64,000 nucleotides of DNA from an uncultured Bacillales bacterium (GTDB taxonomy: Bacteria > Bacillota_I > Bacilli_A > RFN20 > CAG-826): NCBI GenBank assembly GCA_946612115.1, contig CAMOEI010000006.1, forward strand, positions 11,484 to 75,483, given 5' to 3'. Position 1 is the stretch's first letter, and every line of letters begins with the position of its first letter. The position numbers and the translations under genes are program-made. Of this stretch, positions 74 to 64,000 are shown piece by piece. Below the pieces are notes generated by a model. That model searched no databases. It was given only the letters and a program-made list of their open reading frames with translations, and was not told where the DNA came from.

Positions 74-149
74 GGGTCTGTAGCTCATCTGGGAGAGCGC
101 ATCGTTCGCAACGATGAGGTAGCCGGTTCGATCCCGGTCAGATCCACCA
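74..149 (+). tRNA. tRNA-Ala (anticodon CGC)
   Basis: 76-nt cloverleaf. Acceptor stem GGGTCTG/CAGATCC with the G3:U70 Ala identity pair. D-arm GCTC...GAGC, anticodon stem CATCG/CGATG with loop TTCGCAA (anticodon CGC at 107-109), T-arm GCCGG-TTCGATC-CCGGT, discriminator A and encoded CCA. Confidence 0.9.
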
Positions 150-2360: not shown

Positions 2361-2981
2361 ATGGACTCAATCAAAATTGGAAAGTTTATTGCTGAGAAAA
2401 GAAAAGCGAAAAACTTAACGCAACTACAATTAGCGGAACGCTTATACGTCACTGATCGCGCAGTATCTAAATGGGAATGTGGTAGAAGTTTACCAGACTC
2501 ATCAATCATGTTAGAACTATGCGAAGCGCTTGATATCAGCGTTAATGAATTATTAACTGGGGAGGTATTAGAAATGGAAACATATAACAAACAAGCAGAA
2601 GAAAACCTAATTCAAATGATTAAAGAAAAAGAAGAATCAGACAAAAGACTTCTTAATCTAAAAATAGTGTTAGGCATCACTGGAACTTTGTTCTTATTAG
2701 CGATGCTGTTTACTGGAATATTAGGTTATCAATATTTAGGATTACCATTATGGGCGATGATTCTAATGGTGTCAGTGGGTTTTGTTGTCTTTATGGTTGC
2801 AATATTATTCTGTGTGCTTATTGAGCAAAAAGCCGGATATTATGAATGCAAAGAATGCCATCAAACATTTGTTCCTACTTATTTACAAGTATTATTCGCT
2901 CCACACATCAATAGAACAAGATATATGAAATGCCCACATTGTGGCAAAAGAGCGTACCAAAAGAAAGTGATATCAAAATAG
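2361..2981 (+). CDS. XRE-family HTH regulator fused to a transmembrane region and a C-terminal Cys4 zinc ribbon
   Basis: N-terminal HTH (LTQLQLAERLYVTDRAVSKWECGRSLP), two or three hydrophobic helices, and a C-terminal CKECH...CPHCG motif. RBS GGAGGAAAG precedes the ATG. Confidence 0.8.
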   Translation: MDSIKIGKFIAEKRKAKNLTQLQLAERLYVTDRAVSKWECGRSLPDSSIMLELCEALDISVNELLTGEVLEMETYNKQAEENLIQMIKEKEESDKRLLNLKIVLGITGTLFLLAMLFTGILGYQYLGLPLWAMILMVSVGFVVFMVAILFCVLIEQKAGYYECKECHQTFVPTYLQVLFAPHINRTRYMKCPHCGKRAYQKKVISK

Positions 2982-3590: not shown

Positions 3591-3884
3591 TTATTTAGCA
3601 TCAACACTCCATTGGTATCCACATTTTCTGCATGTATTGTGGTACCAATTTTTATCATTGCTTTGATAATATCTGCTTTCAATATCATTGCTTTTACATT
3701 GTGGGCAAATAAAGTCTGATGTGATTGTGCAAGCACCACCACTAACCGCAGCTAATTGTTCATCGGAAAGTTCAATACCTTCAGACTTAGCTAAAGATAA
3801 GAGTTCTTCACTGTTTTTGCAGGCTTTAACTTTTCTAACTTGTTCTTCAGTTAATCCTTTAAGCAAATCTTTTTTCATATTCAA
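3591..3884 (-). CDS. Nif11-type double-glycine leader peptide precursor with Cys-rich zinc-ribbon-like core (paralogue 1)
   Basis: Leader MNMKKDLLKGLTEEQVRKVKACKNSEELLSLAKSEGIELSDEQLAAVSGG. Core ACTITSDFICPQCKSNDIESRYYQSNDKNWYHNTCRKCGYQWSVDAK. RBS AAAGGAGAA. Conserved operator at 3919-3938. Confidence 0.8.
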   Translation of the reverse strand: MNMKKDLLKGLTEEQVRKVKACKNSEELLSLAKSEGIELSDEQLAAVSGGACTITSDFICPQCKSNDIESRYYQSNDKNWYHNTCRKCGYQWSVDAK

Positions 3885-3918
3885 AGTTCTCCTTTGTTGT
3901 CTTTAATTTATCATAACG

Positions 3919-3938
3919 GTTGTCACAAATGTGCCACA
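3919..3938 (-). promoter_or_regulatory. conserved direct-repeat operator TGTGGCACA-TT-TGTGACAAC (copy 1)
   Basis: Identical to the element upstream of 54220. Lies ~40 bp upstream of the start codon. Confidence 0.6.
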
Positions 3939-18153: not shown

Positions 18154-20169
18154 ATGAGAAAAAGATTTCTTAGTGTTATTACTATTATCTCCATGTTAGG
18201 ACTTAGCTCTTGTGCCGGTGCATCAGGCCCAAAGTATTACTCAGTCCGATGGGTGGACCACGATGGAACTCTATTAGAGTTAGATGAAAAGGTCAAAGAA
18301 GGAGAAATGCCTTCTTATGATAGCGCCACCCCAACACGAGCGGCGGATGCGCAATATTCCTACGTATTTGAAGGTTGGAGTCCAGAAGTTGCAGCAGTTA
18401 GTAAAGATGTTACTTACACTGCGACTTACACTCAAACCACACGAATGTATACGGTGAGATGGGTCAACTATAATGACGTAGAACTCGAAGTTAAAACTAA
18501 TGTTCTTTATGGAACAGTTCCAGTTTATCCAGGAACAACAGATCCTAGTAAACCATCAACAACCGAAAAATCCTATAACTTTACAGGTTGGGAACCAACC
18601 CCTGAGGCAATCACAGGCGATGTGACCTATAAAGCTCAATTTGAAGAGGTTGCAAGAAAATACACCATCACGTGGGTTGATGAAAACGAAGAACCTCTTG
18701 AAACAAGCCAAGTTGCCTATGGCACTGTCCCAGAATATCCAGGTGATTATGATCCAAGCAAAGCTTCAACAGAAGACTACAATTACTACTTTGCTGGTTG
18801 GAATCCAGTTCCAGTGGCGGTTACTGGTGACGCAACTTACACCGCAACCTATACTGCTAAGAGAAAATACACCATCACTTGGAATGATGATGAAGGTCAT
18901 CTTTTAGAAACATCTAAGGCTGAAGAAGGAACAATTCCAACTTATCCTGGTACACAAGATCCTTCTAAAGAATCAACTGCACAATATACCTACACATTTA
19001 CTGGCTGGAATCCAACACCTGTCGCAGTTACTGGTGACGCAATCTATGCTGCAACATTCAGCAGCGAAGTCAACAAATACACCATTAGATGGGTTGATGA
19101 CGAGGGCGCAGAACTCGAAGTTGATGAGAATGTCGAATACGGAACGACTCCTTCATTTGAAGGCTCAACTGATAAATCAGATAGTGAACTTTATCACTAC
19201 ACATTTACTGGCTGGGATCCAGCAGTGGAAGATGTAACTGGAAATCAAACTTACACCGCTACATATGACAAGACCAGTCTTTATGAAAATTCTTCTGCAG
19301 CGTTATTAACTGATAACGGAAGAATCAATGAAACTTACACAGCAGCAAAGACTTATCAAAAGAATACATCAACTAAAGTTGACTACTTCTCTCAAGTCGG
19401 ATGGACAGTTTCTTATGGCGCAAAGAGTGATGCTGATGCAACCAAATTCCAAATTGGTAACTGCATACATCCTGATTATGGATATCACGGTGATTTAACT
19501 CCTGAACAGTCCACAATGGCAGCAGAAACTGATCAAACAACAGATACTTATAAGATTGCTGCAGCAGTCGGATCTGCTGAGACAACTCACTTAGTGTCCG
19601 CTATTTGGTCTGATACATATTTTGAAGGACTAAATGATATTCACTTCTATTGGAGAGATTGTGAAACCCCTGGTTATGTCAGAATGGTTTATCAAATCAA
19701 AGGTGAAGATGAATGGAAAGTCTTAGAACGTGACAATGGCAATAACGCTGCCGATGCTTTAAGTGGATATGCTCCTGATGGCAAGAACACCGCTAGTGGA
19801 ACCAGTGGAGATTTTAACCGCTATTCTTATGAAAACTATTTAACAAATGGTTCAAGTTTAAAGAATAGAGCGGTTAGAATTGGGTTTGTCTACACTGTTT
19901 ACAACAGTCAAAGTAAGACTTACTACATGAACCTTGGTGGTATCGTCATTAATGCTGCTCAAGAAGCAATTAACTTCGCTAATAGAATTGGCGCTAATTA
20001 TGCTGATTACAGTGCTAACTGGCAATACAAGAACACCTTAAAAATTATCTATAACTCAATCGCTCCATTTGAGGATGAATTAAAAAATACTGAAATCACA
20101 GCGTTTGATGTTGAAGATACTAATTACTACGATTTCTTAACCACAGTGAAAGCTGCTTGGAATATTTAA
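18154..20169 (+). CDS. lipoprotein with six Listeria-Bacteroides (Flg_new) repeats and a C-terminal domain
   Basis: Lipobox LSSC. Six ~75-aa repeats of the form YT(I/V)RWVD..G..LE....YGT.P.YPG..DPSK...YTF.GW.P.P.AVTGD.TY.A.Y. Confidence 0.75.
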   Translation: MRKRFLSVITIISMLGLSSCAGASGPKYYSVRWVDHDGTLLELDEKVKEGEMPSYDSATPTRAADAQYSYVFEGWSPEVAAVSKDVTYTATYTQTTRMYTVRWVNYNDVELEVKTNVLYGTVPVYPGTTDPSKPSTTEKSYNFTGWEPTPEAITGDVTYKAQFEEVARKYTITWVDENEEPLETSQVAYGTVPEYPGDYDPSKASTEDYNYYFAGWNPVPVAVTGDATYTATYTAKRKYTITWNDDEGHLLETSKAEEGTIPTYPGTQDPSKESTAQYTYTFTGWNPTPVAVTGDAIYAATFSSEVNKYTIRWVDDEGAELEVDENVEYGTTPSFEGSTDKSDSELYHYTFTGWDPAVEDVTGNQTYTATYDKTSLYENSSAALLTDNGRINETYTAAKTYQKNTSTKVDYFSQVGWTVSYGAKSDADATKFQIGNCIHPDYGYHGDLTPEQSTMAAETDQTTDTYKIAAAVGSAETTHLVSAIWSDTYFEGLNDIHFYWRDCETPGYVRMVYQIKGEDEWKVLERDNGNNAADALSGYAPDGKNTASGTSGDFNRYSYENYLTNGSSLKNRAVRIGFVYTVYNSQSKTYYMNLGGIVINAAQEAINFANRIGANYADYSANWQYKNTLKIIYNSIAPFEDELKNTEITAFDVEDTNYYDFLTTVKAAWNI

Positions 20170-20236
20170 GAAGCAAAGCAAACTATTAAAACTATTAAAA
20201 CACTTAAAAAAAGATGTCTTAAGACATCTTTTTTGC

Positions 20237-22660
20237 TTAATCAATTACTTCAATTGTTATCTTCTTAGGATAATCAGAGACATCAAATTTGTTGCTCTCT
20301 AATTTATTTCCGTTAGCTAGAATTGTTCTCTTTCCTTTACCTTTATTTCGGTAGTGAAGATCAACTCTCTTTCCTTTGATTGTTAGAGAGATGTTTGCTT
20401 CCTTAGAAGGCATTTCTCTAACTGGATTGATCTCTACTTCATCACCAATTTTTGGCTTAATACCAAACATATCAAAGATAATTGCTTTTAATAATGTATT
20501 ACTGCTACCGGTATACCAGTCGTTCATACTTTCTCCATCGATACCAAGTTCTTTGTTATAACCATAGGAGTTAGGCATTACAAACGGAGAGACAGAAATC
20601 TTATTGTGAGTAAGAGGAATTAATTTTGAAATTTGTTCAAACGCTTTCTTTCCTTCATTCATCAATAAGAGGGAACGGACCGCAAACATCGCTCCATGGA
20701 TATATGTTGCTGCGTTTTCTGCAGTTCCTTTAGGAAGATTAACAATTCTTCCAACTTTATAAGCGTCTTCTCGGTCAAAATATTCATTAAAGGTCTTGTA
20801 GCCATATTTGCTATCTAAAGCTTCATACGCTTCAAGAATAGATTCTTTTAATTCTGGATGTTTCTTATACATCTTCGAGATGACATAGAAAGCGTGAGAT
20901 GTTACAGAGTAACGGTCTTTGTTATCAACATCACATTTACTTCCGACATAGAATGATTTATCTTCACCCCAGCCGTGAACGATACGATTATCTTTAACAG
21001 CGTATTTCATAAATCCTCTAAGGACCTGTTCTGCTGTTTCTAGATAAATAGTTTCTTCACGCATAAAGTCTGCGATATCATCCATCTCTAAAAGATTGAG
21101 ATATAGGTGCTCGGTGGCCATAACGGATACACCGTTACCGTATTCTTTTCCTTTATTTGATGCGCCTAGACCATCGACTGCGTCATTCCAGTCTCCATAT
21201 AGAGTTCTAAGACAATGTGTATCTTCATCAATGTTAGAAATGAGATAGTGGATGATTCGGCATAAATGTTCATACACTGTTTCTTGTTTATCTATTAAAG
21301 TTGCTTGTTTCTTTGATTTGAGTTCCACATAGCCACATTTCTCGTTAAGAATTGAGTAGTCATTAGTGAAAGCGAGGTATTTCCAAATAGTGGAGATGAT
21401 CCATTGTCCTTGATCAATGAATTCTCTGCTATCAACAAGTGCGTCTTTTCCAGTGCTTGGAGCAGCGTATTGTCTCATCGCTCTTCCTTCGAGTGTGATG
21501 TAGTTAAGAGACTCTAGGATTTTCTTTTTGGCGTTTTCCTTGTTCCAAAGTAAAGACACCTCTAACATTTGATAGAGATCTCTAATACCTAAAAGCATTA
21601 AAGAAGAGTTCTTTGCATTAGCGCAATAATCGACTTGGTCGACTACTGACGCAATGAATTTATTAAAGAGTTCATTATTGATTTCTGAATCAGTGAATTT
21701 TCCGAAAGAAATAGCGATTTTTTCGTTTTTATTTGGTTTTTGAATGGAATTTACATCATTTTTGCTATTTTCTCCAAACCTTAATTCAAGCTCATAACTA
21801 ACTTTATAGGACTCGTTTGGTTGAAGAGTTATTTTGTTCAAATCACCATAAGCTGCCATATTAGTGAAAGTGGAAACTTGCTTGCTATTTTCAAAAGATC
21901 CTTCTCTTAAAAATCTTGATTGGGAAATGGAGTAATTCTTATTTCCAACATAATCTTTTCTAGATGAGACTGCGGAGTAATCTTTTGCTTTATTTTGAAC
22001 TTTTACATCTAGATAACTATGGAGATGTTCCTCTCTAGATAAGTCTTCAACAGAGTGGAATTCTGCTCCATTAGCTTTTAATGAGCAAGTTCTAAACCAT
22101 TTTGTTTCTTCTGTCTCAAACGCTCCGTGAGTAAGGAGTGGATTGAAATAAGAAGATAATAATACTTCTTGAAGTTTCTTTGATTTGTTGATGACTTCAA
22201 GTTCAAAAGAAGCAGCACGTTTACTATCGACCTTTCCTTTTAAACAGAAGATTACTTTCTTGTATTCTCTAATGTATTTGAATTCTTCTTTATTAAAGAT
22301 CACATAGACATCGAATTCTCTACCAAGTTCCGTATCAGCGGATCCGGACAAAGAGAAGACATCAAATCTATCTTTGTTTTTAATTCCTCCGAAGAAAGAG
22401 ACATATGGTTCTTTTCCTTCAAGTTCAGGAGGAAAGATGAAGAAGTTAGATTCATTTAATGTGATGTTTCCTGAAGAATAGGCCCATAAGGTAAACCCAT
22501 CAAGAGAATAAGGATATCGAGCGTCTCCATCAGGATTTGGCAATGCCAAAATGTTGCCGCCTTTTAAAAAGTAGCAACCACTTGGTAAAGAAGCATCTTG
22601 TGGATGCTCCTTAATTATTCTTTTAGATTCTTTTAGTAATTTGATTGCTTCGTTTTCCAT
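20237..22660 (-). CDS. cytoplasmic (alpha/alpha)6-type glycoside phosphorylase/hydrolase, GH94-like (candidate chitobiose/cellobiose-type phosphorylase)
   Basis: 807 aa, no signal peptide. GDWNDAVDGLG motif resembling the GH94 catalytic region. Located in a sugar-uptake locus. Confidence 0.5.
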   Translation of the reverse strand: MENEAIKLLKESKRIIKEHPQDASLPSGCYFLKGGNILALPNPDGDARYPYSLDGFTLWAYSSGNITLNESNFFIFPPELEGKEPYVSFFGGIKNKDRFDVFSLSGSADTELGREFDVYVIFNKEEFKYIREYKKVIFCLKGKVDSKRAASFELEVINKSKKLQEVLLSSYFNPLLTHGAFETEETKWFRTCSLKANGAEFHSVEDLSREEHLHSYLDVKVQNKAKDYSAVSSRKDYVGNKNYSISQSRFLREGSFENSKQVSTFTNMAAYGDLNKITLQPNESYKVSYELELRFGENSKNDVNSIQKPNKNEKIAISFGKFTDSEINNELFNKFIASVVDQVDYCANAKNSSLMLLGIRDLYQMLEVSLLWNKENAKKKILESLNYITLEGRAMRQYAAPSTGKDALVDSREFIDQGQWIISTIWKYLAFTNDYSILNEKCGYVELKSKKQATLIDKQETVYEHLCRIIHYLISNIDEDTHCLRTLYGDWNDAVDGLGASNKGKEYGNGVSVMATEHLYLNLLEMDDIADFMREETIYLETAEQVLRGFMKYAVKDNRIVHGWGEDKSFYVGSKCDVDNKDRYSVTSHAFYVISKMYKKHPELKESILEAYEALDSKYGYKTFNEYFDREDAYKVGRIVNLPKGTAENAATYIHGAMFAVRSLLLMNEGKKAFEQISKLIPLTHNKISVSPFVMPNSYGYNKELGIDGESMNDWYTGSSNTLLKAIIFDMFGIKPKIGDEVEINPVREMPSKEANISLTIKGKRVDLHYRNKGKGKRTILANGNKLESNKFDVSDYPKKITIEVID

Positions 22661-39547: not shown

Positions 39548-42500
39548 ATGAAAAAATCAGTTATTAAAAATATATCGTTACCTATTGCTGGTTTATTAGG
39601 TCTTGGCGTTATAACATTTGGCGCTGTTTCATATAGTGAATATAAAAAAGATAACATTAATGTCGCTTTAGCAGATGAAGGAACTGAATTACCTTCCTCA
39701 GGAGGTGCGTTATCTTCGGGCACTTATTATATAAATACAAATACAACTTTAACTAATTACATAACAGTCGCTAGTGGTAAAAATATTGTTATTAATCTTA
39801 ATGGTTGTTCATTAAGTGCCAACCCTAATTCTACTCAACCTATTGTATATGTTAATGGTGGAACATTAACGGTTAATGGTGATAATGGCAAATTAACTGG
39901 GGGAACGGGTTACTCTAGCAACTTTAAAAGAGGTGGCGCATTTCATCTTGCTTCTGGCAATGTAACAGTTAATAGTTGTAATTTTGAAAATAACACAGCT
40001 GAATATGGCGGAGCCATATATCTAGGTGGAGGCACTATTACTCTTAATGATTGTAAACTATATAACAATACAGCAACTAGTCAATGGGGAGATTATGGCG
40101 CTATCTTTGCTGAAGGCGCAAATTCTAACGCAAGTGTAATTGTTAATGGTGGTGAAATATATTCTAATGATTCAGGAATAATGCTAGCGGGTTGGAAAGA
40201 TAATACATCAAGCGCTCAGCTAAATGGAGTCAATATCCACAACAACCCTAAATATGGTGTTGATGTTAGAGGCGACAATGCTGGTCGCGCTGCTGTAAGT
40301 GTATCTGGCAATACTATTATAGAAAGCAATACATTAGGAAATTTACGTCTACAGGGCAATAGCGCTAGCACCCAACCTAAGTTTAGTGTTGCATCTGAGT
40401 TAGGTGATAATGCATCAATTGGTATCTCTATGGCTCATAAAGGTGTTTTCACCAAAAGCACAGACACATCATTAAATGATGCTAGCAAATTTTTTAGTGA
40501 TGATAGTGGTTATGCAGTCGGCAAGAACGATGATGGGCAATTGTTTTTAGACTCTCCTAAAACAGTTACCTATAGCACCGAACATGGTACTGCACCTGAT
40601 CCTGTAAAAGTTGCCACTGGCTCTACCATTCCTAGCGAACCAATTTCCCCAACTGCGGAAGGATATGATTTCGTTGGTTGGTATAAAGAGAGTACTTTTG
40701 ACAATGCCTGGGATTTTGCTACTGATGTAGTGACATCAGATATAACTTTATATGCAAAATGGCTCACACTACCAACCGCATCTATTACGAAAGGCACAGA
40801 TGTTACATATTATGATAGTTTTGGTGAGGCGTTATCTCACTGGGAAGTTGACTCAATTTTAACCTTGCATAAAGATGTTACAACATCAACCACTATTACA
40901 ATCAATAATAATGTTATTCTTGACCTTAATGGTCATGGTATTAGAATGACTAACACCAACACTAGATTGTTCTATATCAATAGTGGTAAAACATTAACTG
41001 TTAATGATAGTAACTCAACCCACGCTCACGCAGTAACTCTTTCAGGCTGGCGTGGTACAGCTGTCACTGATGGAACTGGAACAAGTTCTGTGAATAATGG
41101 TAGTGGTACAGCTTATATCACTGGCGGATATATCACTGGTGGGTATTCAACTAGTAGTTCTGTAAAAGAAGGTTTAGCTTTCTATATCAATGGTGGCACC
41201 CTCGTTTTAAATGGCGGAAATATTATTGGTAACTATGTTAAGGTTACAAACAATTCTGGTGCCGGTGTTTATATGACAGGCGGAGCTCATCTAAGCATGT
41301 ATGACGGAGCAGCGCTTATATATAACTATGCTCAAAATTCGGCCGCTGCAATTGAAGCAGTTAACTCTTATGTCGAAATTTATGGCGGCACTATCGCACA
41401 TAATAGAAATGACTGGGGAGATGGAGTTGCAATTTCTGCCGCTGGAGCCACTTCAATCAAATTATATGGTGGTGTCATTGAGGACAATAGCACTAAAAAT
41501 AATGGAGCTATTAGCCTTGCCCGTTATAGCTTGTCGGCTGATCAATACTTCGGAATTAAAGGATCACCGACTGTCACTAATAATTATTCTTGGAATAATA
41601 ACAATAATCCTGCAAACATCAATCTCTATACAAAAGCTCATATTGAAGGAGCATTAACCAATACAGAAAAGATTGGCATTAATCTCCATAGTAAAGGCGC
41701 TGGCAATATATGGAATAACGGTACTGGCTGTTTTACTATCGGTTGGTCGACTTATATGGAGGGGAAAGATCCTAGAGATTATTTCTTTAGTGATAAATCA
41801 GATTACATTATTGGATTAAATGCAGAAGGAGAAGTAGTTTTAGACTCTCCTAAAACAGTTACCTATATCACTGAACATGGTACCGCTCCTGATTCAGCTA
41901 CAGTTGCGTCTGGTTCTATTATTCTAGATGAACCAACTGAACCAACTGAAGGAGACTATGTTTTCGGTGGTTGGTATAAAGAGAGTACCTTTGAAAATGC
42001 CTGGGATTTCACCACTGATGTAGTGACATCAGATATAACTTTATATGCTAAATGGTATGATCCCGCGACTCTCAATGTTATTAAATTAATTAATGATATT
42101 GGTGAAATTACATATGATGGCGGAGTCGATGACTCTCAAAACGATATCATTGCAGCAAAAACCGCTTACGATGCTTTAACTCCAGGACAACAAGCAGATG
42201 TCGGTGGAACTAATAAAGATATTTTGGATCACGATATTGTGACTTATAACCATGTTGATAATGCTGGAGATTTAATTAAAGCTATTCCTGAGGCTAGTGA
42301 TTCTCAAGAATATTATGATGCAGTTGTTGCTGCTGAAGCAGCATATAAAGCTTTAACCGATGAAGAAAAAGCTATTTTAAATGCTGATCCTAACTTTGAT
42401 TATTTAAAGGCATTAAATGATAATGTCACCGCTAAAGAAGTTATCGAACTCATCAAAGATATTGGAGAAGTAACTTACAAAGGTGGTCAAGATGATTCTA

Positions 42501-45325
42501 AAGATGATATTAATAATGCCTTAAATGCGTATAACAATTTAACTGACGATCAAAAGGCAATCGTTGATAACGTTAATAAAGATGATTTAGATGACGCAAA
42601 AGAAACATATGATGATGTTGATGATGCAATTAAACTAATTGAATCTATCGGTGATGTCTCTCATGGTGGAGCATCTGATTCTCAAGAAGCGATTGAAGCC
42701 GCTAGAGAAGCATATGATTCTTTATCTGATGAACAAAAAGCTTTAGTGGATTCATATAATGATTCTGGTAAGACCTTACAAGATGATGAAGCTGTCTATG
42801 AAGCGATGGAAGCAATTGACGCTATTGGTGATGTCAGTTATGACTCAGATAGCGAAGAAACTGTCGCTCACGCTAGAGAAGTCTATGATTCATTAACCGA
42901 TGATCAAAAAGCTCAACTTGGTGAAGCTTATGTCAAGATTCTCACCGATGCTGAAAGCAAATATTCTTCTTTAGGACAAAAAGGTGACATCTTATTTATC
43001 ATTTTGATTATTGTTGCTTCACTTGCTCTTATCGGTGGCTTAGTCTTCTTATTCTTCCTCATTAAAAAGAAAAAGAATAAAGATGACGATGACCAAAATA
43101 ATGGAAACCTTAAAAAAGGACAACCAGCAAAAGCTTATTCCTTTGGTGGTTTACTCCCATTAGTGGTTTTAGTGAGTCACTATCTAGATACCAAATACAT
43201 CATCCTTTATGTTGTTGCAGGACTTGCGGTGCTCGTTTGGATTTCTTGCCTTGTTCTTTTCTTAACTAAAAAGAAGGCTAAAGCCGCTATACAAGTTAAA
43301 GATGATGTAAAAGTGGAGGAGAATGCATTACCACAAAATGAAGATGAAGAAGAAGTGGTGACAGTCACTGATGAAAAAGGAAACATCTTCCAAATCAGAT
43401 TCATTAAATCATTCACTGCAAAACTTATTCAATCTCCTAAAGAAACTAAAAAGTATTATGAAGAACTTAAAAATGAAGTTCTCTCTTATAAAAAGACTAA
43501 TACGAGAGTTAGTTGGCATTATGATGCGATTAACTCTGGTAGAAATTATGTTCTTAAATTTGCAGTTAGAGGAAAAACACTTTGTGTTTATTTCCCTCTT
43601 AATGCAGATGATTACGTTGATTCTAAATATAAAGTCGAAAAGTCCGAAAGCAAGAGATACGAAGATGTTCCTTGCTTATATCGAATCAAAAACGATCGAA
43701 GACTTGGCTATGCAAAAGAACTTATTGCGGTGGTCGCTAATAAGCTTGGCCTAGAAAAAGGCGAAGAACAACATGAAGTTTACTCTAATCTTCCTTATGA
43801 GCCGAATAAACCACTTATTGCTAGAGGTTTAATCAAAGAACTTAAGATTCAAGTCAATAAACCAATAGAGCAAGTTCTTGAAACTAAAGTCAATAGCGAG
43901 GGCGATGAGATTGTTGTCAGTAAGGACGAAAAAGGAAATATCTTTGAGATTAGATTTGTGAAGTCGTTCACTGCGAAGCTCATCCAGTCACCAGAAGAAA
44001 CGAAGAAATATTACGAAGAGCTTAAGAATTATGTTCTCTCATATAAGAAAACAACTTCTAGAGTTTCTTGGCATTATGATTCAATTAATTCTGGTAGAAA
44101 CCAAGTCTTGAAGTTTGCGGTTAGAGGTAAAACACTTTGTGTTTATTACCCACTTAATGCGGATAGTTACTCCGAAAGTAAATATAAAGTTGAAAAAGTG
44201 GAGTCTAAGAAGTTCGAAGATGTTCCTTGCCTTTATAGGATTAAGAATGATCGAAGACTTGGCTACGCAAAAGAATTGATCGATGTTGTTTGTGAATCTC
44301 TCGGCTTAGTTAGAGGTGAAGAGCAACATGAAAGTTACGCCAATCTTCCATATGAACCAAATAGACCATTAATCGCTAGGGGTTTAATCAAAGAACTAAA
44401 AGTTCAGGTTAATAGACCAAGCGAACCAGAAGTGTTAGAAAGTAAGACTAACATAGAAGGCGATGAAATTGTGGTCACTAAAGATGCATCTGGCAACATC
44501 TTTGAAATCAGATACATCAAATCGTTTACTGCTAAACTATCTCAATCCAGTGATGAAGTTAAAGACTACTACACCGAGCTTAAAAATTACGCGCTTTCAT
44601 ATAAAAAAGCTAATTCTAGAGTAAGCTGGCACTATGACTCAGTTAATGTTGGTAGGAACCAAGTTCTTAAATTCTCTATTAGAGGAAAGACTTTATGTCT
44701 CTATTATGCATTAGACGCTGAGAGATATGCGGACAGCAAATACAAGGTAGAGAAAGTCGAATCTAAGAAGTTTGAAGATGTCCCTTGCTTATATCGAATC
44801 AAAAACGATCGAAGAAGAGACTACGCAAAAGAACTCATCGATGTGGTGATGGAGAGAGTTGGAGCGGTTAAAGGTGAGGAGCCAAACGAAGATTATCGCA
44901 TTCCATATGAAAAGACTAATGTTCTCTTAGGAAAAGGTCTCATCAAAGAAGTGAAAACTAAAGTTAATAATCCTGAACCAAAGTCTGTAGAAGTTCATGA
45001 ATCAATCACTGCGATAGAAGCAGACATTAAAATGTCTGATGAAAAAGCTGAATCTTTGATTGAAGAGAGTAATGAAACTTCTAGTAGAGGTGGTAAAAAA
45101 GAGATTATTAATATCGACACACTCTCAGAGCATTATCAAGATGGTGATGAAGTCACCTTAGATTCATTGATAAAAAAGAAACTCGTGTCTAATAAAGCCG
45201 GATATATCAAGGTTTTAGCAAGAGGCACATTAGATAAAAAACTAACAGTGGTTTTAAATGATTTCTCACTCCAAGCTGTTAAGATGATCGTTCTTGTCGG
45301 CGGAAAAGTGAAGAAAGTCAGATAA
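39548..45325 (+). CDS. giant surface protein: beta-helix, Listeria-Bacteroides repeats, ~45-aa repeats, 3 TM segments, cytoplasmic tail with three ~187-aa repeats and a uL15-like C-terminal domain
   Basis: Signal/anchor sequence. Parallel beta-helix-like Gly/Asn-rich repeats. Two Flg_new repeats (GWYKESTF.NAWDF.TDVVTSDITLYAKW). Six DIGEVTY.GG.DDS... repeats. Hydrophobic segments at aa ~1150-1250. Three repeats beginning DEKGNIF(E/Q)IRF(I/V)KSFTAKL. The last ~75 aa align with the C-terminal half of bacterial RplO (INID..GDEVT...AGYIKVLARGTLDKKLTV...FS..A......GG). Confidence 0.8.
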   Translation: MKKSVIKNISLPIAGLLGLGVITFGAVSYSEYKKDNINVALADEGTELPSSGGALSSGTYYINTNTTLTNYITVASGKNIVINLNGCSLSANPNSTQPIVYVNGGTLTVNGDNGKLTGGTGYSSNFKRGGAFHLASGNVTVNSCNFENNTAEYGGAIYLGGGTITLNDCKLYNNTATSQWGDYGAIFAEGANSNASVIVNGGEIYSNDSGIMLAGWKDNTSSAQLNGVNIHNNPKYGVDVRGDNAGRAAVSVSGNTIIESNTLGNLRLQGNSASTQPKFSVASELGDNASIGISMAHKGVFTKSTDTSLNDASKFFSDDSGYAVGKNDDGQLFLDSPKTVTYSTEHGTAPDPVKVATGSTIPSEPISPTAEGYDFVGWYKESTFDNAWDFATDVVTSDITLYAKWLTLPTASITKGTDVTYYDSFGEALSHWEVDSILTLHKDVTTSTTITINNNVILDLNGHGIRMTNTNTRLFYINSGKTLTVNDSNSTHAHAVTLSGWRGTAVTDGTGTSSVNNGSGTAYITGGYITGGYSTSSSVKEGLAFYINGGTLVLNGGNIIGNYVKVTNNSGAGVYMTGGAHLSMYDGAALIYNYAQNSAAAIEAVNSYVEIYGGTIAHNRNDWGDGVAISAAGATSIKLYGGVIEDNSTKNNGAISLARYSLSADQYFGIKGSPTVTNNYSWNNNNNPANINLYTKAHIEGALTNTEKIGINLHSKGAGNIWNNGTGCFTIGWSTYMEGKDPRDYFFSDKSDYIIGLNAEGEVVLDSPKTVTYITEHGTAPDSATVASGSIILDEPTEPTEGDYVFGGWYKESTFENAWDFTTDVVTSDITLYAKWYDPATLNVIKLINDIGEITYDGGVDDSQNDIIAAKTAYDALTPGQQADVGGTNKDILDHDIVTYNHVDNAGDLIKAIPEASDSQEYYDAVVAAEAAYKALTDEEKAILNADPNFDYLKALNDNVTAKEVIELIKDIGEVTYKGGQDDSKDDINNALNAYNNLTDDQKAIVDNVNKDDLDDAKETYDDVDDAIKLIESIGDVSHGGASDSQEAIEAAREAYDSLSDEQKALVDSYNDSGKTLQDDEAVYEAMEAIDAIGDVSYDSDSEETVAHAREVYDSLTDDQKAQLGEAYVKILTDAESKYSSLGQKGDILFIILIIVASLALIGGLVFLFFLIKKKKNKDDDDQNNGNLKKGQPAKAYSFGGLLPLVVLVSHYLDTKYIILYVVAGLAVLVWISCLVLFLTKKKAKAAIQVKDDVKVEENALPQNEDEEEVVTVTDEKGNIFQIRFIKSFTAKLIQSPKETKKYYEELKNEVLSYKKTNTRVSWHYDAINSGRNYVLKFAVRGKTLCVYFPLNADDYVDSKYKVEKSESKRYEDVPCLYRIKNDRRLGYAKELIAVVANKLGLEKGEEQHEVYSNLPYEPNKPLIARGLIKELKIQVNKPIEQVLETKVNSEGDEIVVSKDEKGNIFEIRFVKSFTAKLIQSPEETKKYYEELKNYVLSYKKTTSRVSWHYDSINSGRNQVLKFAVRGKTLCVYYPLNADSYSESKYKVEKVESKKFEDVPCLYRIKNDRRLGYAKELIDVVCESLGLVRGEEQHESYANLPYEPNRPLIARGLIKELKVQVNRPSEPEVLESKTNIEGDEIVVTKDASGNIFEIRYIKSFTAKLSQSSDEVKDYYTELKNYALSYKKANSRVSWHYDSVNVGRNQVLKFSIRGKTLCLYYALDAERYADSKYKVEKVESKKFEDVPCLYRIKNDRRRDYAKELIDVVMERVGAVKGEEPNEDYRIPYEKTNVLLGKGLIKEVKTKVNNPEPKSVEVHESITAIEADIKMSDEKAESLIEESNETSSRGGKKEIINIDTLSEHYQDGDEVTLDSLIKKKLVSNKAGYIKVLARGTLDKKLTVVLNDFSLQAVKMIVLVGGKVKKVR

Positions 45326-48230: not shown

Positions 48231-49055
48231 ATGAAAAATATTAAAGTCAAAAACATTGTTATCAGCATCACTGGAATTGGTGACGATGATTTTGTCAATC
48301 TTACTGATATAGCGAGAATTGTTAACCCAGAGTTTCCTTCTTATGTGGTTAGAAACTGGATGAGATTAAGAGCCACTATTGAATTTTTAGGAATTTGGGA
48401 GAAATTAAACAATGAATATTTTAATTTGACCGAATTCGATCAAATAAAAAATGCTTCAGGATCTAACGCATTTGTTATGACTGCTACAAAATGGGTAAAA
48501 GAAACTAACGCAATCGGAATAAAACCAAGACGTGGTAAATATAGTGAAGGCACTTTTGCTCATCGTGATATTGCGTTAGAATTTGCGTCTTGGATTTCTG
48601 CTGAAGTAAAGCTTTATATTATCAAAGAGTTCCAAAGACTAAAGATTCAAGAATCAGAACAACTTGAATGGCAAGGGAAGAGGTTGTTAACGAAGTTAAA
48701 TTATCTGATTCATACGGATGCCGTTAAGGAATATTTGGTTCCTGTTGAATTATCAAATGAACAAAAGAATTTTATTTATGCTAGTGAAGCAGATCTTTTG
48801 AATGTTGCCCTGTTTGGTAGAACTGCAAAAGAGTGGAGAGATACGAACATAGGCAAAGAAGGCAATATACGAGATTACGCAAATACTATTGAATTAGCGA
48901 TTCTTAGTAACCTTGAATATTTGAATTCAATGCTAATTACGCAAAAACTATCACAACAAGAAAGGCTAGTTATTCTTAATAAAGAAGCAAATAGAGAAAA
49001 AGAACTATTCAATAAGAATAGTGTTAAACCAATTAAGATGATTGAAAAGAAGTAA
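48231..49055 (+). CDS. KilA-N domain protein (phage-associated DNA-binding family)
   Basis: FVNLTDIARIVNPEFPSYVVRNWMRLRATIEFLGIWEKLNN matches the KilA-N signature (...NW.R...T.EFLG.WE..NN). Confidence 0.5.
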   Translation: MKNIKVKNIVISITGIGDDDFVNLTDIARIVNPEFPSYVVRNWMRLRATIEFLGIWEKLNNEYFNLTEFDQIKNASGSNAFVMTATKWVKETNAIGIKPRRGKYSEGTFAHRDIALEFASWISAEVKLYIIKEFQRLKIQESEQLEWQGKRLLTKLNYLIHTDAVKEYLVPVELSNEQKNFIYASEADLLNVALFGRTAKEWRDTNIGKEGNIRDYANTIELAILSNLEYLNSMLITQKLSQQERLVILNKEANREKELFNKNSVKPIKMIEKK

Positions 49056-49184
49056 ACCCCTCGATATTGGTAGGTTTAAATTGATCGATTTCTATCAAAT
49101 TGATAAAGGGGTCGAATTCGACCCCCTATTATCGGAGTCAGGCAGGAATTCATTTACAATGTCGCCGACAAGGTGGATTAATGA

Positions 49185-49226
49185 TTTTAACGCAATCGGA
49201 ATCAGAACAACTTGAATGGCAAGGGA
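49185..49226 (+). pseudogene. mosaic fragment of the KilA-N gene
   Basis: TAACGCAATCGGAAT (matching 48507-48521) fused to CAGAACAACTTGAATGGCAAGGGAA (matching 48656-48680). Sits inside the short ORFs at 49095-49301. Confidence 0.5.
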
Positions 49227-49278: not shown

Positions 49279-49298
49279 TGTGGCACATTTGTGACAAC
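49279..49298 (+). promoter_or_regulatory. conserved direct-repeat operator TGTGGCACA-TT-TGTGACAAC (copy 2)
   Basis: ~35 bp upstream of the 49333 start. Same element as at 3919, 53782, 54166, 55018 and 62893. Confidence 0.6.
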
Positions 49299-49332
49299 CA
49301 ATGTGTTAGGATTTATTTAGCAAAGGAGAACT

Positions 49333-49626: not shown

Positions 49627-49698
49627 TCAAAATGACGAAACAACCGAGTGAATGGCTCGGTTTTTCTTATACAAGAAAAGTGTGTTATAATATCATAG

Positions 49699-53728: not shown

Positions 53729-53781
53729 GATAAGTAATATCAAGAATATATCGTTACATATAATGTAACGATTTTTCTTTT

Positions 53782-53800
53782 TGTGACACATTTGTGGCAA
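53782..53800 (+). promoter_or_regulatory. conserved direct-repeat operator TGTGACACA-TT-TGTGGCAA (copy 3)
   Basis: ~40 bp upstream of the ATG at 53842. Confidence 0.6.
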
Positions 53801-53841
53801 TAAAGATGTTAAATTATGTTTACCAAAGGAGAACTTTGAAT

Positions 53842-54123: not shown

Positions 54124-54165
54124 ACTCGTTTATAGTATTAAGAAGCCCTTTGGGCTTTTTATTTT

Positions 54166-54185
54166 TGTGGCACATTTGTGACAAC
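54166..54185 (+). promoter_or_regulatory. conserved direct-repeat operator TGTGGCACA-TT-TGTGACAAC (copy 4)
   Basis: The 70 bp upstream of 54220 are identical to the region upstream of paralogue 1. Confidence 0.6.
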
Positions 54186-54219
54186 CGTTATGATAAATTA
54201 AAGACAACAAAGGAGAACT

Positions 54220-54513: not shown

Positions 54514-54614
54514 TATTTAATAAAATAACTTAGAATCGCCACTAAAAAAGTGGCTTTTCTTTTGCAATAAAAAATGAGATGAAATCTCACCTCATTTATT
54601 TTCAATAAAACTTA

Positions 54615-55017: not shown

Positions 55018-55034
55018 TGTGGCACTTTTGTGCG
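55018..55034 (+). promoter_or_regulatory. variant direct-repeat operator TGTGGCAC-TTT-TGTGCG (copy 5)
   Basis: ~45 bp upstream of the ATG at 55078. Confidence 0.45.
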
Positions 55035-55077
55035 TTATATTTGTTAGAATAGTTCGACCTTCATGGAGGAAGTATCA

Positions 55078-62816: not shown

Positions 62817-62892
62817 AAGTTAACCTCTTAGTCATTAACCATTTTATAACTACTTACTCTTTTTTTTGAGAGAAATTTCTACCTTTTTTACT

Positions 62893-62910
62893 GTGACACT
62901 TTTGTGGCAG
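62893..62910 (+). promoter_or_regulatory. direct-repeat operator TGTGACAC-TTT-TGTGGCAG (copy 6) in the divergent intergenic region
   Basis: ~50 bp upstream of the lipoprotein ATG at 62962, and divergent from the ABC ATPase gene. Confidence 0.5.
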
Positions 62911-62961
62911 TAAGAGTGATAACATATATTTGTTAATATATTAAAGGAAGGATGGTAAATT

Positions 62962-64000
62962 ATGAAAAATAAACTATTACCTTTATTACTAGTTGGAGCG
63001 TTTGTCTTAACTGGATGTACGATTAAATTGGAAGGACGTGGTTCATCTAATCCAGTTGATCCCGCTCACGAAGAAGAGGAAGAAGAAATCTATCCAGAAC
63101 ACAACCATTATTGGGAAGCCCCTATTTGGTCTTGGAGTGAAGACAATCAAACCGCTAGAGCGAAGTTCAGATGTTCAGTTTATAACCATTACCACATTGA
63201 AACCGCAACAGTGGAAGATGAACAAATTGAAATCGAAAACATTAAAGAAGCCGACCACTATGAAGATGGCTTAGACAAATATGTCGCTACTGTGACCTTT
63301 AGTGGAGCGACATATACTTCTCCAGATCATTTCGTAGTCATCAATCAAGGTCAACACGAATTTAATGAATATGGAATCTGTTTAGCGGATGGAGAATTCC
63401 TCTATAAGGAAACCAATGAACTTGATTACGACTTTGAATGGATGCAAATGTATGGCGAATATAAAGCTGAAGTCAATGTCGATAGTGAAGACTATGTCGC
63501 TGTTGGAGATAAGATCATCTTCAAATTTCATCTTGATCATAAAGGGCACGAGATTAAACTTAGAGATTTAGTGAACATTACAGTTGATGATATAACCATT
63601 GGTTATGTTTGGTATGAAGATTTCTATGAAGTCAAATATACAGAATATTATGAACATACCTTTGAAGACTTCCCATCAAATAACGTTTTTGCGATTGTTG
63701 ATAAGAATTCCGAACAGACAAATCGTAGTTTCTCAATTGTTGAATGCCACACATGTAACAAAATAGGAATTTGTGAAGATTGTGAAAGATACTTTGGCGC
63801 ATATTTTGGTACAACTCAAGCAATTACCTTCAGCTTTACTGCTGGAAAAGTAATTAACTTCCGTTTCCAAGCTTGGCCAGGAAGAAAATATTATGTATTC
63901 TTCCAAAGAGACTTAGAGGGTCATGAAGATGAATTTGAAATCTATACGGTTGATCAATATTTCAATCCAGTCCCTTATGATTTAAATGATCCATTCCCAG
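62962..64000 (+). CDS. lipoprotein of unknown function (partial, runs off the window end)
   Basis: ATG at 62962 with RBS AAAGGAAGGATGG. Lipobox LTGC. The frame stays open to position 64000. Acidic, His/Tyr-rich. Confidence 0.6.
   Translation, partial: MKNKLLPLLLVGAFVLTGCTIKLEGRGSSNPVDPAHEEEEEEIYPEHNHYWEAPIWSWSEDNQTARAKFRCSVYNHYHIETATVEDEQIEIENIKEADHYEDGLDKYVATVTFSGATYTSPDHFVVINQGQHEFNEYGICLADGEFLYKETNELDYDFEWMQMYGEYKAEVNVDSEDYVAVGDKIIFKFHLDHKGHEIKLRDLVNITVDDITIGYVWYEDFYEVKYTEYYEHTFEDFPSNNVFAIVDKNSEQTNRSFSIVECHTCNKIGICEDCERYFGAYFGTTQAITFSFTAGKVINFRFQAWPGRKYYVFFQRDLEGHEDEFEIYTVDQYFNPVPYDLNDPFP

Follow-up and report, generated by a model that had tools for sequence, protein, structure and literature searches.

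This report concerns a direct-repeat element that occurs six times in 64,000 nucleotides of contig CAMOEI010000006.1 of an uncultured Bacillales bacterium (the window, by which the whole analysed stretch is meant) and that probably belongs to promoters served by an activator. Among the binding sites of OmpR/PhoB-family regulators are the pho box, the CiaR repeats (TTTAAG-N5-TTTAAG), the WalR site (TGTWAH-N5-TGTWAH) and the NisR/SpaR site (TCT-N8-TCT). The pho boxes of PhoB and the CiaR repeats lie 10 bp from the -10 hexamer and replace the -35 hexamer, which is the layout of an activator site. Bacteriocin promoters of the LytTR type carry 9-bp direct repeats about 21 bp apart. The NHLP/Nif11 class of RiPP (peptides made on ribosomes and modified after translation) or bacteriocin systems (TIGR03798, TIGR03796, TIGR03794) was reportedly described by Haft in 2010; in the literature searched, no regulator or promoter motif is described for such systems. 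Promoters of SARPs (antibiotic regulatory proteins of Streptomyces) carry direct repeats whose spacing is 11 or 22 bp, and the 3' repeat is 8 bp away from the -10 (PMC10936776). The afs box of AfsR, with its centre at -29.5, comprises two repeats of 11 bp, the upstream one covering -40 to -30, and two SARP protomers side by side on it offer sigma region 4 an alternative docking surface (PMC10936776).

Five exact matches to TGTGRCACN{3,4}TGTGRCA were found in the window, versus 0.00 expected from shuffles. A tolerance of up to three mismatches added only 55018-55035 (TGTGGCACTTTTGTGCGT, with three), giving six matches versus 0.33 expected. The six-copy element proposed in a sequence-only reading of the same DNA is borne out, and the coordinates then given were right to within 1-2 nt (Table 1). 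The consensus of the box is TGTGRCAC-WTT-TGTGRCA, 18 bp. Intergenic DNA makes up 7.9% of the window and holds all six boxes, each oriented with the next gene, as first described. The motif ends 42 nt before the ATG at five copies and 52 nt before it at 62892. The repeat period is exactly 11 bp at all six sites and at 156 unique sites elsewhere (among the matches listed). Copies 3938(-) and 54166(+) agree in every base from the box to the end of the start codon, which marks them as paralogous duplicates and leaves five independent copies. The boxes could be read as relics of duplicated peptide cassettes, with no regulatory role; this identity, and the ribosome-binding-site (RBS) region that is conserved in the four peptide genes of the window, would fit. 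Such a reading is scarcely credible, as the box also stands before 55078, 62962 and many other genes that are unrelated, as are their 5' regions, is kept where the spacer that separates it from the -10 has diverged, and persists across bacterial classes.

The pattern box-N7-TG, which favours sites with TG at +8/+9, was scanned in 185,579 species genomes. The box was found in at least 117 genome stretches, at least 103 of them from rumen or gut Firmicutes. Among the matches listed, on which the site counts given below are also based, 76 stretches are rumen metagenome-assembled genomes (MAGs) labelled Erysipelotrichaceae, Bacilli or Bacillales, 27 are Clostridia (some Lachnospiraceae) and 14 are strays, about chance level. 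Cultured Clostridia with the box are Butyrivibrio VCD2006, XPD2002 and LC3010, Oribacterium C9, WCC10 and P6A1, and Lachnospiraceae AC2029 and JC7. Loci are cited here by number where they need to be told apart; L003, from a relative with a peptide 74% identical, has four exact boxes before peptide operons and a lipase gene. Downstream of the box in the Bacilli group, the matches listed include 76 Nif11-type peptide genes (69 long and 7 short), and there are also at least 21 genes for signal-peptide proteins or lipoproteins, STAS anti-sigma-antagonist genes, a gene for a protein of ~400 aa (see below) and a few others. In the Bacilli group, box and start codon are separated by a median of 41 nt. 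On sequence grounds the element is a genuine, conserved promoter box. Its occurrence before the same kinds of gene in dozens of related genomes supports the earlier suggestion that peptides, secreted protein and lipoprotein may form one regulon. That regulon can hardly be called small, as it was, since relatives carry at least 13-14 boxes per MAG (RUG14810, RUG12224). In the literature searched there is no description of the box, of a target of the regulator family treated below, or of these peptides.

An extended -10, TGnTAnnnT, follows all six boxes of the window, with a spacer of 10 nt in five cases and of 9 nt at 55018. The four sites in L003 likewise have TAnnnT at a fixed 10-nt distance from the box. 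TAnnnT stands at +11 to +16 in 107 of 114 unique Bacilli-group sites (next best offset, 30), in 22 of 28 Clostridia sites and in 3 of 14 sites of stray taxa; this position is not imposed by the search pattern. A consensus scan of the window sites gave no -35-like hexamer 16-18 nt 5' of the conserved -10, where CACWTT is present. Repeat 1 was also tried as a -35 (GTGGCA, 16 nt, TATGAT; 54167-54194) and was rejected, with TAnnnT there in 23 of 114 sites versus 107 at +11. The two 11-bp units TGTGRCAC-WTT and TGTGRCA-NNNN adjoin the extended -10. With the transcription start taken from the position of the -10 only, and the -10 as -12 to -7, we infer that the repeats occupy about -40 to -19. The T-run said to precede the element is indeed common (at least 50% per position at -8 to -1 in 114 related sites). 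It is largely the tail of an upstream terminator, before boxes 53782 and 54166 the U-tract of the upstream genes' intrinsic terminators, and it is not required: copy 3938 lacks it, as do boxes that begin 3 nt past a stop codon. Two of the peptide genes end in terminators too (Table 1); because of the flanking terminators, each unit is self-contained, in the order terminator, box, -10, RBS, gene, terminator. An Rfam scan of the window found only a tRNA and no RNA family at the boxes.

The box is likely to be a class-II-type activator site for a regulator with a receiver and a winged helix, each copy forming the upstream half of an activator-dependent promoter. The earlier assignment of repeats one helical turn apart to an OmpR/PhoB-type regulator or activator is supported by the fixed -10 and by the genetic linkage to a response regulator with a predicted winged helix (see below). 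Like the boxes of Streptomyces SARPs (the afs box of AfsR, ActII-ORF4, DnrI), these are 11-bp tandem repeats that replace or overlap the -35, with a probable 22-bp span of about -40 to -19. Unlike them, the repeat is TGTGRCA and not of the TCGAGXX type, the promoter has an extended -10, and the hosts, instead of being actinomycetes, are rumen Firmicutes of low GC content. The gap from repeat to -10 is 10 nt counting heptamers and 6 nt counting 11-mers, near the 8-bp SARP rule but not identical with it. Repeats 11 bp apart and 10 bp 5' of the -10, with a receiver and winged-helix regulator of a two-component system, are also features of OmpR/PhoB class II sites. The TGT-N8-TGT core resembles the WalR site, and systems of the NisR type also govern exported peptides. 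On this reading the box falls into a known kind, that of direct-repeat sites at which a winged-helix response regulator activates genes for exported peptides.

It had been held that the spacing of the element rules out a sigma-54 promoter. This was wrong, as TGGCAC-N5-TGGCA has the exact GG-N10-GC spacing and is one base off TGGCAC-N5-TTGCA. An alternative sigma factor could accordingly read the element, either sigma-54 (-24 TGGCAC, -12 TGGCA) or a sigma controlled by partner switching; the STAS, RsbW-like and SpoIIE genes of the regulon would suit the latter. It is the variable G/A and the extended -10 that speak for exclusion. The purines of repeats 1 and 2 in the 114 Bacilli-group sites are G/A in 66, A/A in 20, G/G in 18 and A/G in 10, so that GG and GC are both present in only 18 and neither is present in 20, and A/A is found in 19 of 28 Clostridia sites. 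A -24/-12 promoter does not need the sigma-A-type TGnTAnnnT that stands at a fixed distance in 107 of 114. Since the purine positions vary freely and a sigma-A extended -10 follows, the element is not a sigma-54 promoter. Its halves are moreover one word repeated 11 bp apart, unlike -35/-10 or -24/-12 pairs, and no sigma gene occurs in the box-linked clusters. Any alternative sigma promoter is therefore very improbable. A candidate of the extracytoplasmic function (ECF) type was rejected separately: an ECF gene lies near boxes only in L003, and a phmmer search with SigB against 1,485 open reading frames (ORFs) of box loci found nothing.

In a phmmer search of the ORFs of box loci, a receiver-domain protein of ~253 aa was found to adjoin boxes in five Bacilli MAGs, and a homologue of 260 aa adjoins a box in Lachnospiraceae AC2029. 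The box starts 3-15 nt past the stop codon of this regulator in L018, L064, L087, L084, L050 and L124, and 226 nt past it in L017. A metagenome scan with a profile of the regulator gave 80 loci, of which 73 have room after the gene. In 41 of the 73, a box with a correctly spaced -10 lies no more than 220 nt after the stop, versus 2% of random 220-nt windows. The half-sites covary across these 41 loci (TGTG twice in 19, TGTT twice in 14, TGTA twice in 2, mixed in 6), and their variants track regulator clades; in both TGTA loci, the predicted recognition helix of the regulator has the change N186V. Because both half-sites change together, the pattern suggests that one protein species reads both units. 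The variant seen at 55018, with TGTGCG as second repeat and a 9-nt spacer, occurs again after regulator genes in L129, L130 and L140. Two loci have three tandem 11-bp units (TGTGGCATTTC TGTGGCACTTC TGTGGCA) directly after the regulator gene, which suggests that more than two protomers may bind there.

The regulator has the signature NELNAVLWEEDH...YRGEYMxQY. Pfam finds only a receiver domain (E 4e-24), the receiver is nearest BtsR and LytR in NCBIfam, and one member carries the JGI label 'two-component SAPR family response regulator'. In the AlphaFold2 model, with a predicted local distance difference test score (pLDDT) of 78, the receiver is followed by a small beta-sheet, three helices and a beta-hairpin wing. 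After the wing come ~45 residues, the last 16 with pLDDT below 50. Top Foldseek matches in the PDB are the full-length OmpR/PhoB regulators DrrB, VanR, PrrA, PhoP, MtrA, KdpE and RpaA, over ~225 columns. By hhalign, the DNA-binding domain of the regulator aligns with the winged helix of AfsR (E 7e-5, probability 63%) and does not match the C-terminal domain of PhoB. Control of secondary-metabolite or peptide gene sets would be a further feature shared with SARP systems. It has an N-terminal receiver and a stub after the wing and, unlike SARPs, no Pfam BTAD, NOD or TPR. Unlike OmpR/PhoB systems, it is without a detected Trans_reg_C, and its receiver and kinase belong to the LytR/LytS (PF06580) type instead of to that of EnvZ/PhoR. 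It is best described as SARP-like, being neither a canonical SARP, because there is no BTAD and only the short stretch after the wing, nor a canonical OmpR. A LytTR regulator was considered and rejected: kinase and receiver are LytS/LytR-like, but the output domain is a winged helix with no LytTR match. We know of no characterised response regulator of the COG3947 kind (receiver plus SARP-like domain), and the literature searched holds neither such a regulator nor SARP-type regulators in Clostridia.

The usual gene order of the cluster is LytS-type histidine kinase (PF06580), regulator, box, ~400-aa protein, second box, short Nif11 peptide (example core CDSSNKDNKKRKIES), radical-SAM/SPASM enzyme, small membrane protein and C39-peptidase ABC exporter. 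The exporter of related genomes scores 836 bits on TIGR03796 and has a TIGR03794-like partner. Regulator cluster and dispersed boxes are present in the same MAGs in C4 bin12, ruminal_MAG_116, RUG13318 and RGIG9687. The first gene of the post-regulator box encodes a protein of ~390-400 aa (N-terminus MSKK.IYILMYKDYEVLSF...) without a match in Pfam or NCBIfam. The kinase-regulator cluster often has partner-switching genes on its flanks, which in several genomes are box-driven, with no sigma factor gene nearby; they are of the STAS, STAS-APH kinase fusion, SpoIIE-HATPase_c_2 and MatE-HATPase_c_2 types. As in AgrCA, ComDE, BlpRH, PlnBCD and VirSR, kinase and regulator adjoin a small exported peptide and a C39-peptidase ABC exporter, and as in the peptide quorum-sensing regulons of LytTR regulators, direct-repeat boxes precede many dispersed GG-leader peptide genes. 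The box-linked system differs from those regulons in its winged-helix output, in a candidate signal with a Nif11-type leader and a radical-SAM maturase, and in repeats of 7 bp at an 11-bp period.

In the proposed mechanism, two phosphorylated copies of the regulator would bind the two units of the box head to tail. The regulator would combine a LytR-like receiver with a SARP/OmpR-like winged helix (COG3947 type), and its partner would be a LytS-type membrane histidine kinase. Once bound, it would replace the missing -35 contact and recruit RNA polymerase with the housekeeping sigma-A, like SARP activators. It would be encoded elsewhere in the genome, in a cluster with genes for the kinase, for a short peptide of the Nif11 type, for a maturase (radical-SAM/SPASM) and for an ABC exporter with a C39 peptidase, and the six promoters of the window (four for four-cysteine peptides, one for a secreted protein, one for a lipoprotein) would be induced together. 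From these comparisons we infer that the regulator binds the box, that it activates and does not repress, where transcription starts, and that this genome has the regulator. Because the regulator cluster holds such a peptide, a maturase and an exporter, a secreted-peptide signal, similar to quorum sensing, is suggested; that the signal is the radical-SAM-modified short peptide is speculative.

Several findings weigh against this mechanism. Extended -10 promoters can fire without a -35, which leaves some room for repression in place of activation. Were the box a repressor operator, constitutive extended -10 promoters would be blocked by a tandem-binding protein on -40 to -19 until a signal arrives; all sites do carry TGn, and the position of the box overlaps the polymerase footprint. 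Repression is nonetheless unlikely, because repeats in place of the -35 are typical of activators, in the layout of SARP sites (PMC10936776) and also of OmpR/PhoB/CiaR-type sites, the -10 hexamers are often weak (TAGGAT, TAACAT), and a box right after the regulator gene, driving a maturase and exporter cluster, fits positive feedback. The term 'operator', used in the sequence-only reading, is a misnomer if the box is, as likely, an activator site.

Further adverse points concern the regulator itself. The 77-kb sheep-rumen contig that includes the window has no gene for a response regulator, for a kinase, for a sigma factor or for a peptidase-exporter, so that the regulator's occurrence in this genome is an assumption; the co-occurring two-component system for which a search had been proposed is box-linked in related genomes and is not on this contig. 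No box lies downstream in 32 of the 73 regulator loci, nor is there one in L122, with a regulator that shares 75% identity with the query. The co-variation of half-sites and regulators is confounded by phylogeny. Neither Trans_reg_C nor BTAD was detected in the regulator by Pfam at E <= 0.1, the PDB sequence matches to AfsR and EmbR are marginal (E 0.08-1.1), and the C-terminal domain modelled alone (pLDDT 55) was too poor for a fold search. Another tandem-binding factor might bind the box, with the COG3947-type regulator as a target and not the binder; absence of the regulator from the window and its box-free loci are compatible with this, and the co-occurring partner-switching proteins could control such a factor. 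No other DNA-binding protein, however, recurs near boxes, half-site variants follow regulator clades, and a winged helix of the OmpR/SARP type suits 11-bp direct repeats, which makes a different binder quite unlikely. Binding by the receiver and winged-helix regulator is still preferred.

The genes served in the window are listed in Table 1. In the four peptides, the leader invariably ends in GG and the core, ~45 aa, is variable. As in NHLP/Nif11 systems, the leaders resemble Nif11 and end in GG, and the exporter of related genomes is TIGR03796-like. The leader scores are below the curated cut-offs (20.7-21.2 bits versus 32.3 for TIGR03798, 17-22.5 versus 23.8 for PF07862), and judged by them the resemblance to Nif11 is remote only; the four-cysteine, zinc-ribbon-like cores are a further difference, and the window itself has no C39-peptidase exporter. 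Homologues of the 54226 peptide come from rumen metagenomes, with up to 6 genes per 8 kb. An orthologue test found no homologues of 55078 and 62962 among box-driven genes elsewhere; conserved regulation of these two genes individually is for this reason not demonstrable, and only their class (signal peptide or lipoprotein) recurs. A link of the box to the divergent transporter, earlier called BceAB-like, is not upheld. Box and -10 face the lipoprotein gene, no BceRS-like system is found in the window, and the permease of the transporter is generic (789 aa, two FtsX domains).

Table 1. Location of boxes, genes served and other features (positions without locus number refer to the window)
Feature	Location	Strand	Details
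Direct-repeat box TGTGGCACATTTGTGACA	3921..3938	-	-10 TAAATT at 3905-3910, TG at 3912-3913
Direct-repeat box TGTGGCACATTTGTGACA	49279..49296	+	-10 TAGGAT at 49307-49312, TG at 49304-49305
Direct-repeat box TGTGACACATTTGTGGCA	53782..53799	+	-10 TAAATT at 53810-53815; T-run from upstream terminator 53750-53772
Direct-repeat box TGTGGCACATTTGTGACA, flagged copy	54166..54183	+	-10 TAAATT at 54194-54199, TG at 54191-54192; upstream terminator 54139-54161
Variant box TGTGGCACTTTTGTGCGT	55018..55035	+	-10 TAGAAT at 55045-55050, 9-nt spacer
Direct-repeat box TGTGACACTTTTGTGGCA	62892..62909	+	-10 TAACAT at 62920-62925, TG at 62917-62918
Peptide gene, 95 aa	3594..3878	-	Nif11-like leader ending GG, four-cysteine (CxxC...CxxC) core
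Peptide gene, 95 aa	49339..49623	+	Nif11-like GG-leader, four-cysteine; terminator after, 49642-49662
Peptide gene, 93 aa	53842..54120	+	Nif11-like GG-leader, zinc-ribbon-like core; Zn_ribbon_TFIIS, E 6e-6
Peptide gene, 95 aa	54226..54510	+	Nif11-like GG-leader, four-cysteine; 602 homologues; terminator after, 54538-54554
Protein gene, 220 aa	55078..55737	+	N-terminal signal peptide; no family match
Lipoprotein gene	62962..64000, beyond window edge	+	Lipobox LTGC; 382 aa in L001; no family match
tRNA gene	74-146		Rfam, 59.3 bits
206-aa protein	2361-2981		Adjoins peptide gene 3594-3878
1,925-aa surface protein	39548-45325		Ribosomal_L27A match at residues 1853-1921 (Pfam, E 1.4e-12)
KilA-N gene	48231-49055		Followed by short ORF 49042-49215
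Short ORF	49042-49215		Repeats part of the KilA-N protein; just 5' of box 49279
Three tandem 11-bp units	L050:1499-1527; L084:2214 region		Directly after regulator gene
~390-400-aa protein genes	L064:4497-5690; L018:3363-4574; L124:10834-11994; L021:1819 region
Partner-switching loci	L124:4488-10004, 18816-20759; L100:1125-4455; L065:6984-7277; L041:5843-7865; L122:11062-14373
Non-coding box sites	L016:175(+), L099:4659(-), L119:1179(-), L091:2751(+), L092:5112(+), L010:1935(-)
Non-coding box sites, further	L076:6275(+), L073:1529(-), L118:3573(+)
Clostridiales-1 RNA	L073:1172-1328	+	RF01699, 82.7 bits; Oribacterium sp. C9
CobW/COG0523 GTPase gene	L003:8626-9888		Directly 5' of box-driven peptide gene
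Box-driven Cys4 peptide gene	L003:10001-10285

In JC7, Butyrivibrio and Oribacterium, box and -10 are followed by no ORF but by a conserved non-coding stretch of ~100-130 nt with an intrinsic terminator at its end. These box-driven stretches in Lachnospiraceae look like candidate small RNAs that by sequence form two or three families, none of which matches Rfam, and may be compared with RNAIII and VR-RNA. In Oribacterium sp. C9, a Clostridiales-1 RNA lies convergent, just past the terminator of one such stretch. In L003, a gene for a metallochaperone-type GTPase (CobW/COG0523) lies directly 5' of a box-driven four-cysteine peptide gene, and this neighbour may hint at a zinc link for the zinc-ribbon-like peptides. 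Regulation by Zur or zinc, for which four-cysteine cores and CobW in L003 could be adduced, was rejected, as the box is a direct repeat and not a palindrome and precedes many genes unrelated to zinc.

Other features of the window were noted beside the box-driven genes. The 206-aa protein encoded next to the first peptide gene combines a helix-turn-helix of the XRE type, a membrane segment and a C-terminal zinc-ribbon-like motif. The short ORF that follows the KilA-N gene is, by its translation, a degenerate duplicate of part of that gene. The 1,925-aa surface protein has Listeria-Bacteroides (Flg_new) repeats, and Ribosomal_L27A is an odd domain at its C-terminus.

In a wider reading, which we put forward tentatively and hold to be somewhat doubtful as a whole, rumen Firmicutes of two classes would share a peptide-signalling circuit of a new type, probably by horizontal transfer. 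The LytS-type kinase would sense a radical-SAM-modified Nif11-leader peptide, and the receiver-SARP hybrid would replace the -35 contact at TGTGRCA boxes, through a mechanism of sigma adaptation so far known only from actinomycete SARPs. At least a dozen secreted zinc-ribbon mini-proteins per genome would be induced together with surface proteins and modules for partner switching, and in Lachnospiraceae also with small RNAs. Since the box is present in cultured strains of the Hungate collection (Butyrivibrio, Oribacterium, Lachnospiraceae AC2029 and JC7), the hypothesis is experimentally testable now. If the regulator does act at the box, response regulators of the COG3947 type (receiver plus SARP-like domain) would gain a concrete DNA target and a testable regulon, and the promoter geometry of SARPs would be shown outside actinomycetes. 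The very large and unstudied family of GG-leader, four-cysteine peptides, with its 602 homologues, would likewise gain a regulatory logic. These peptides come from abundant, mostly uncultured rumen bacteria, in which bacteriocin-like competition and cell-cell signalling affect fermentation.

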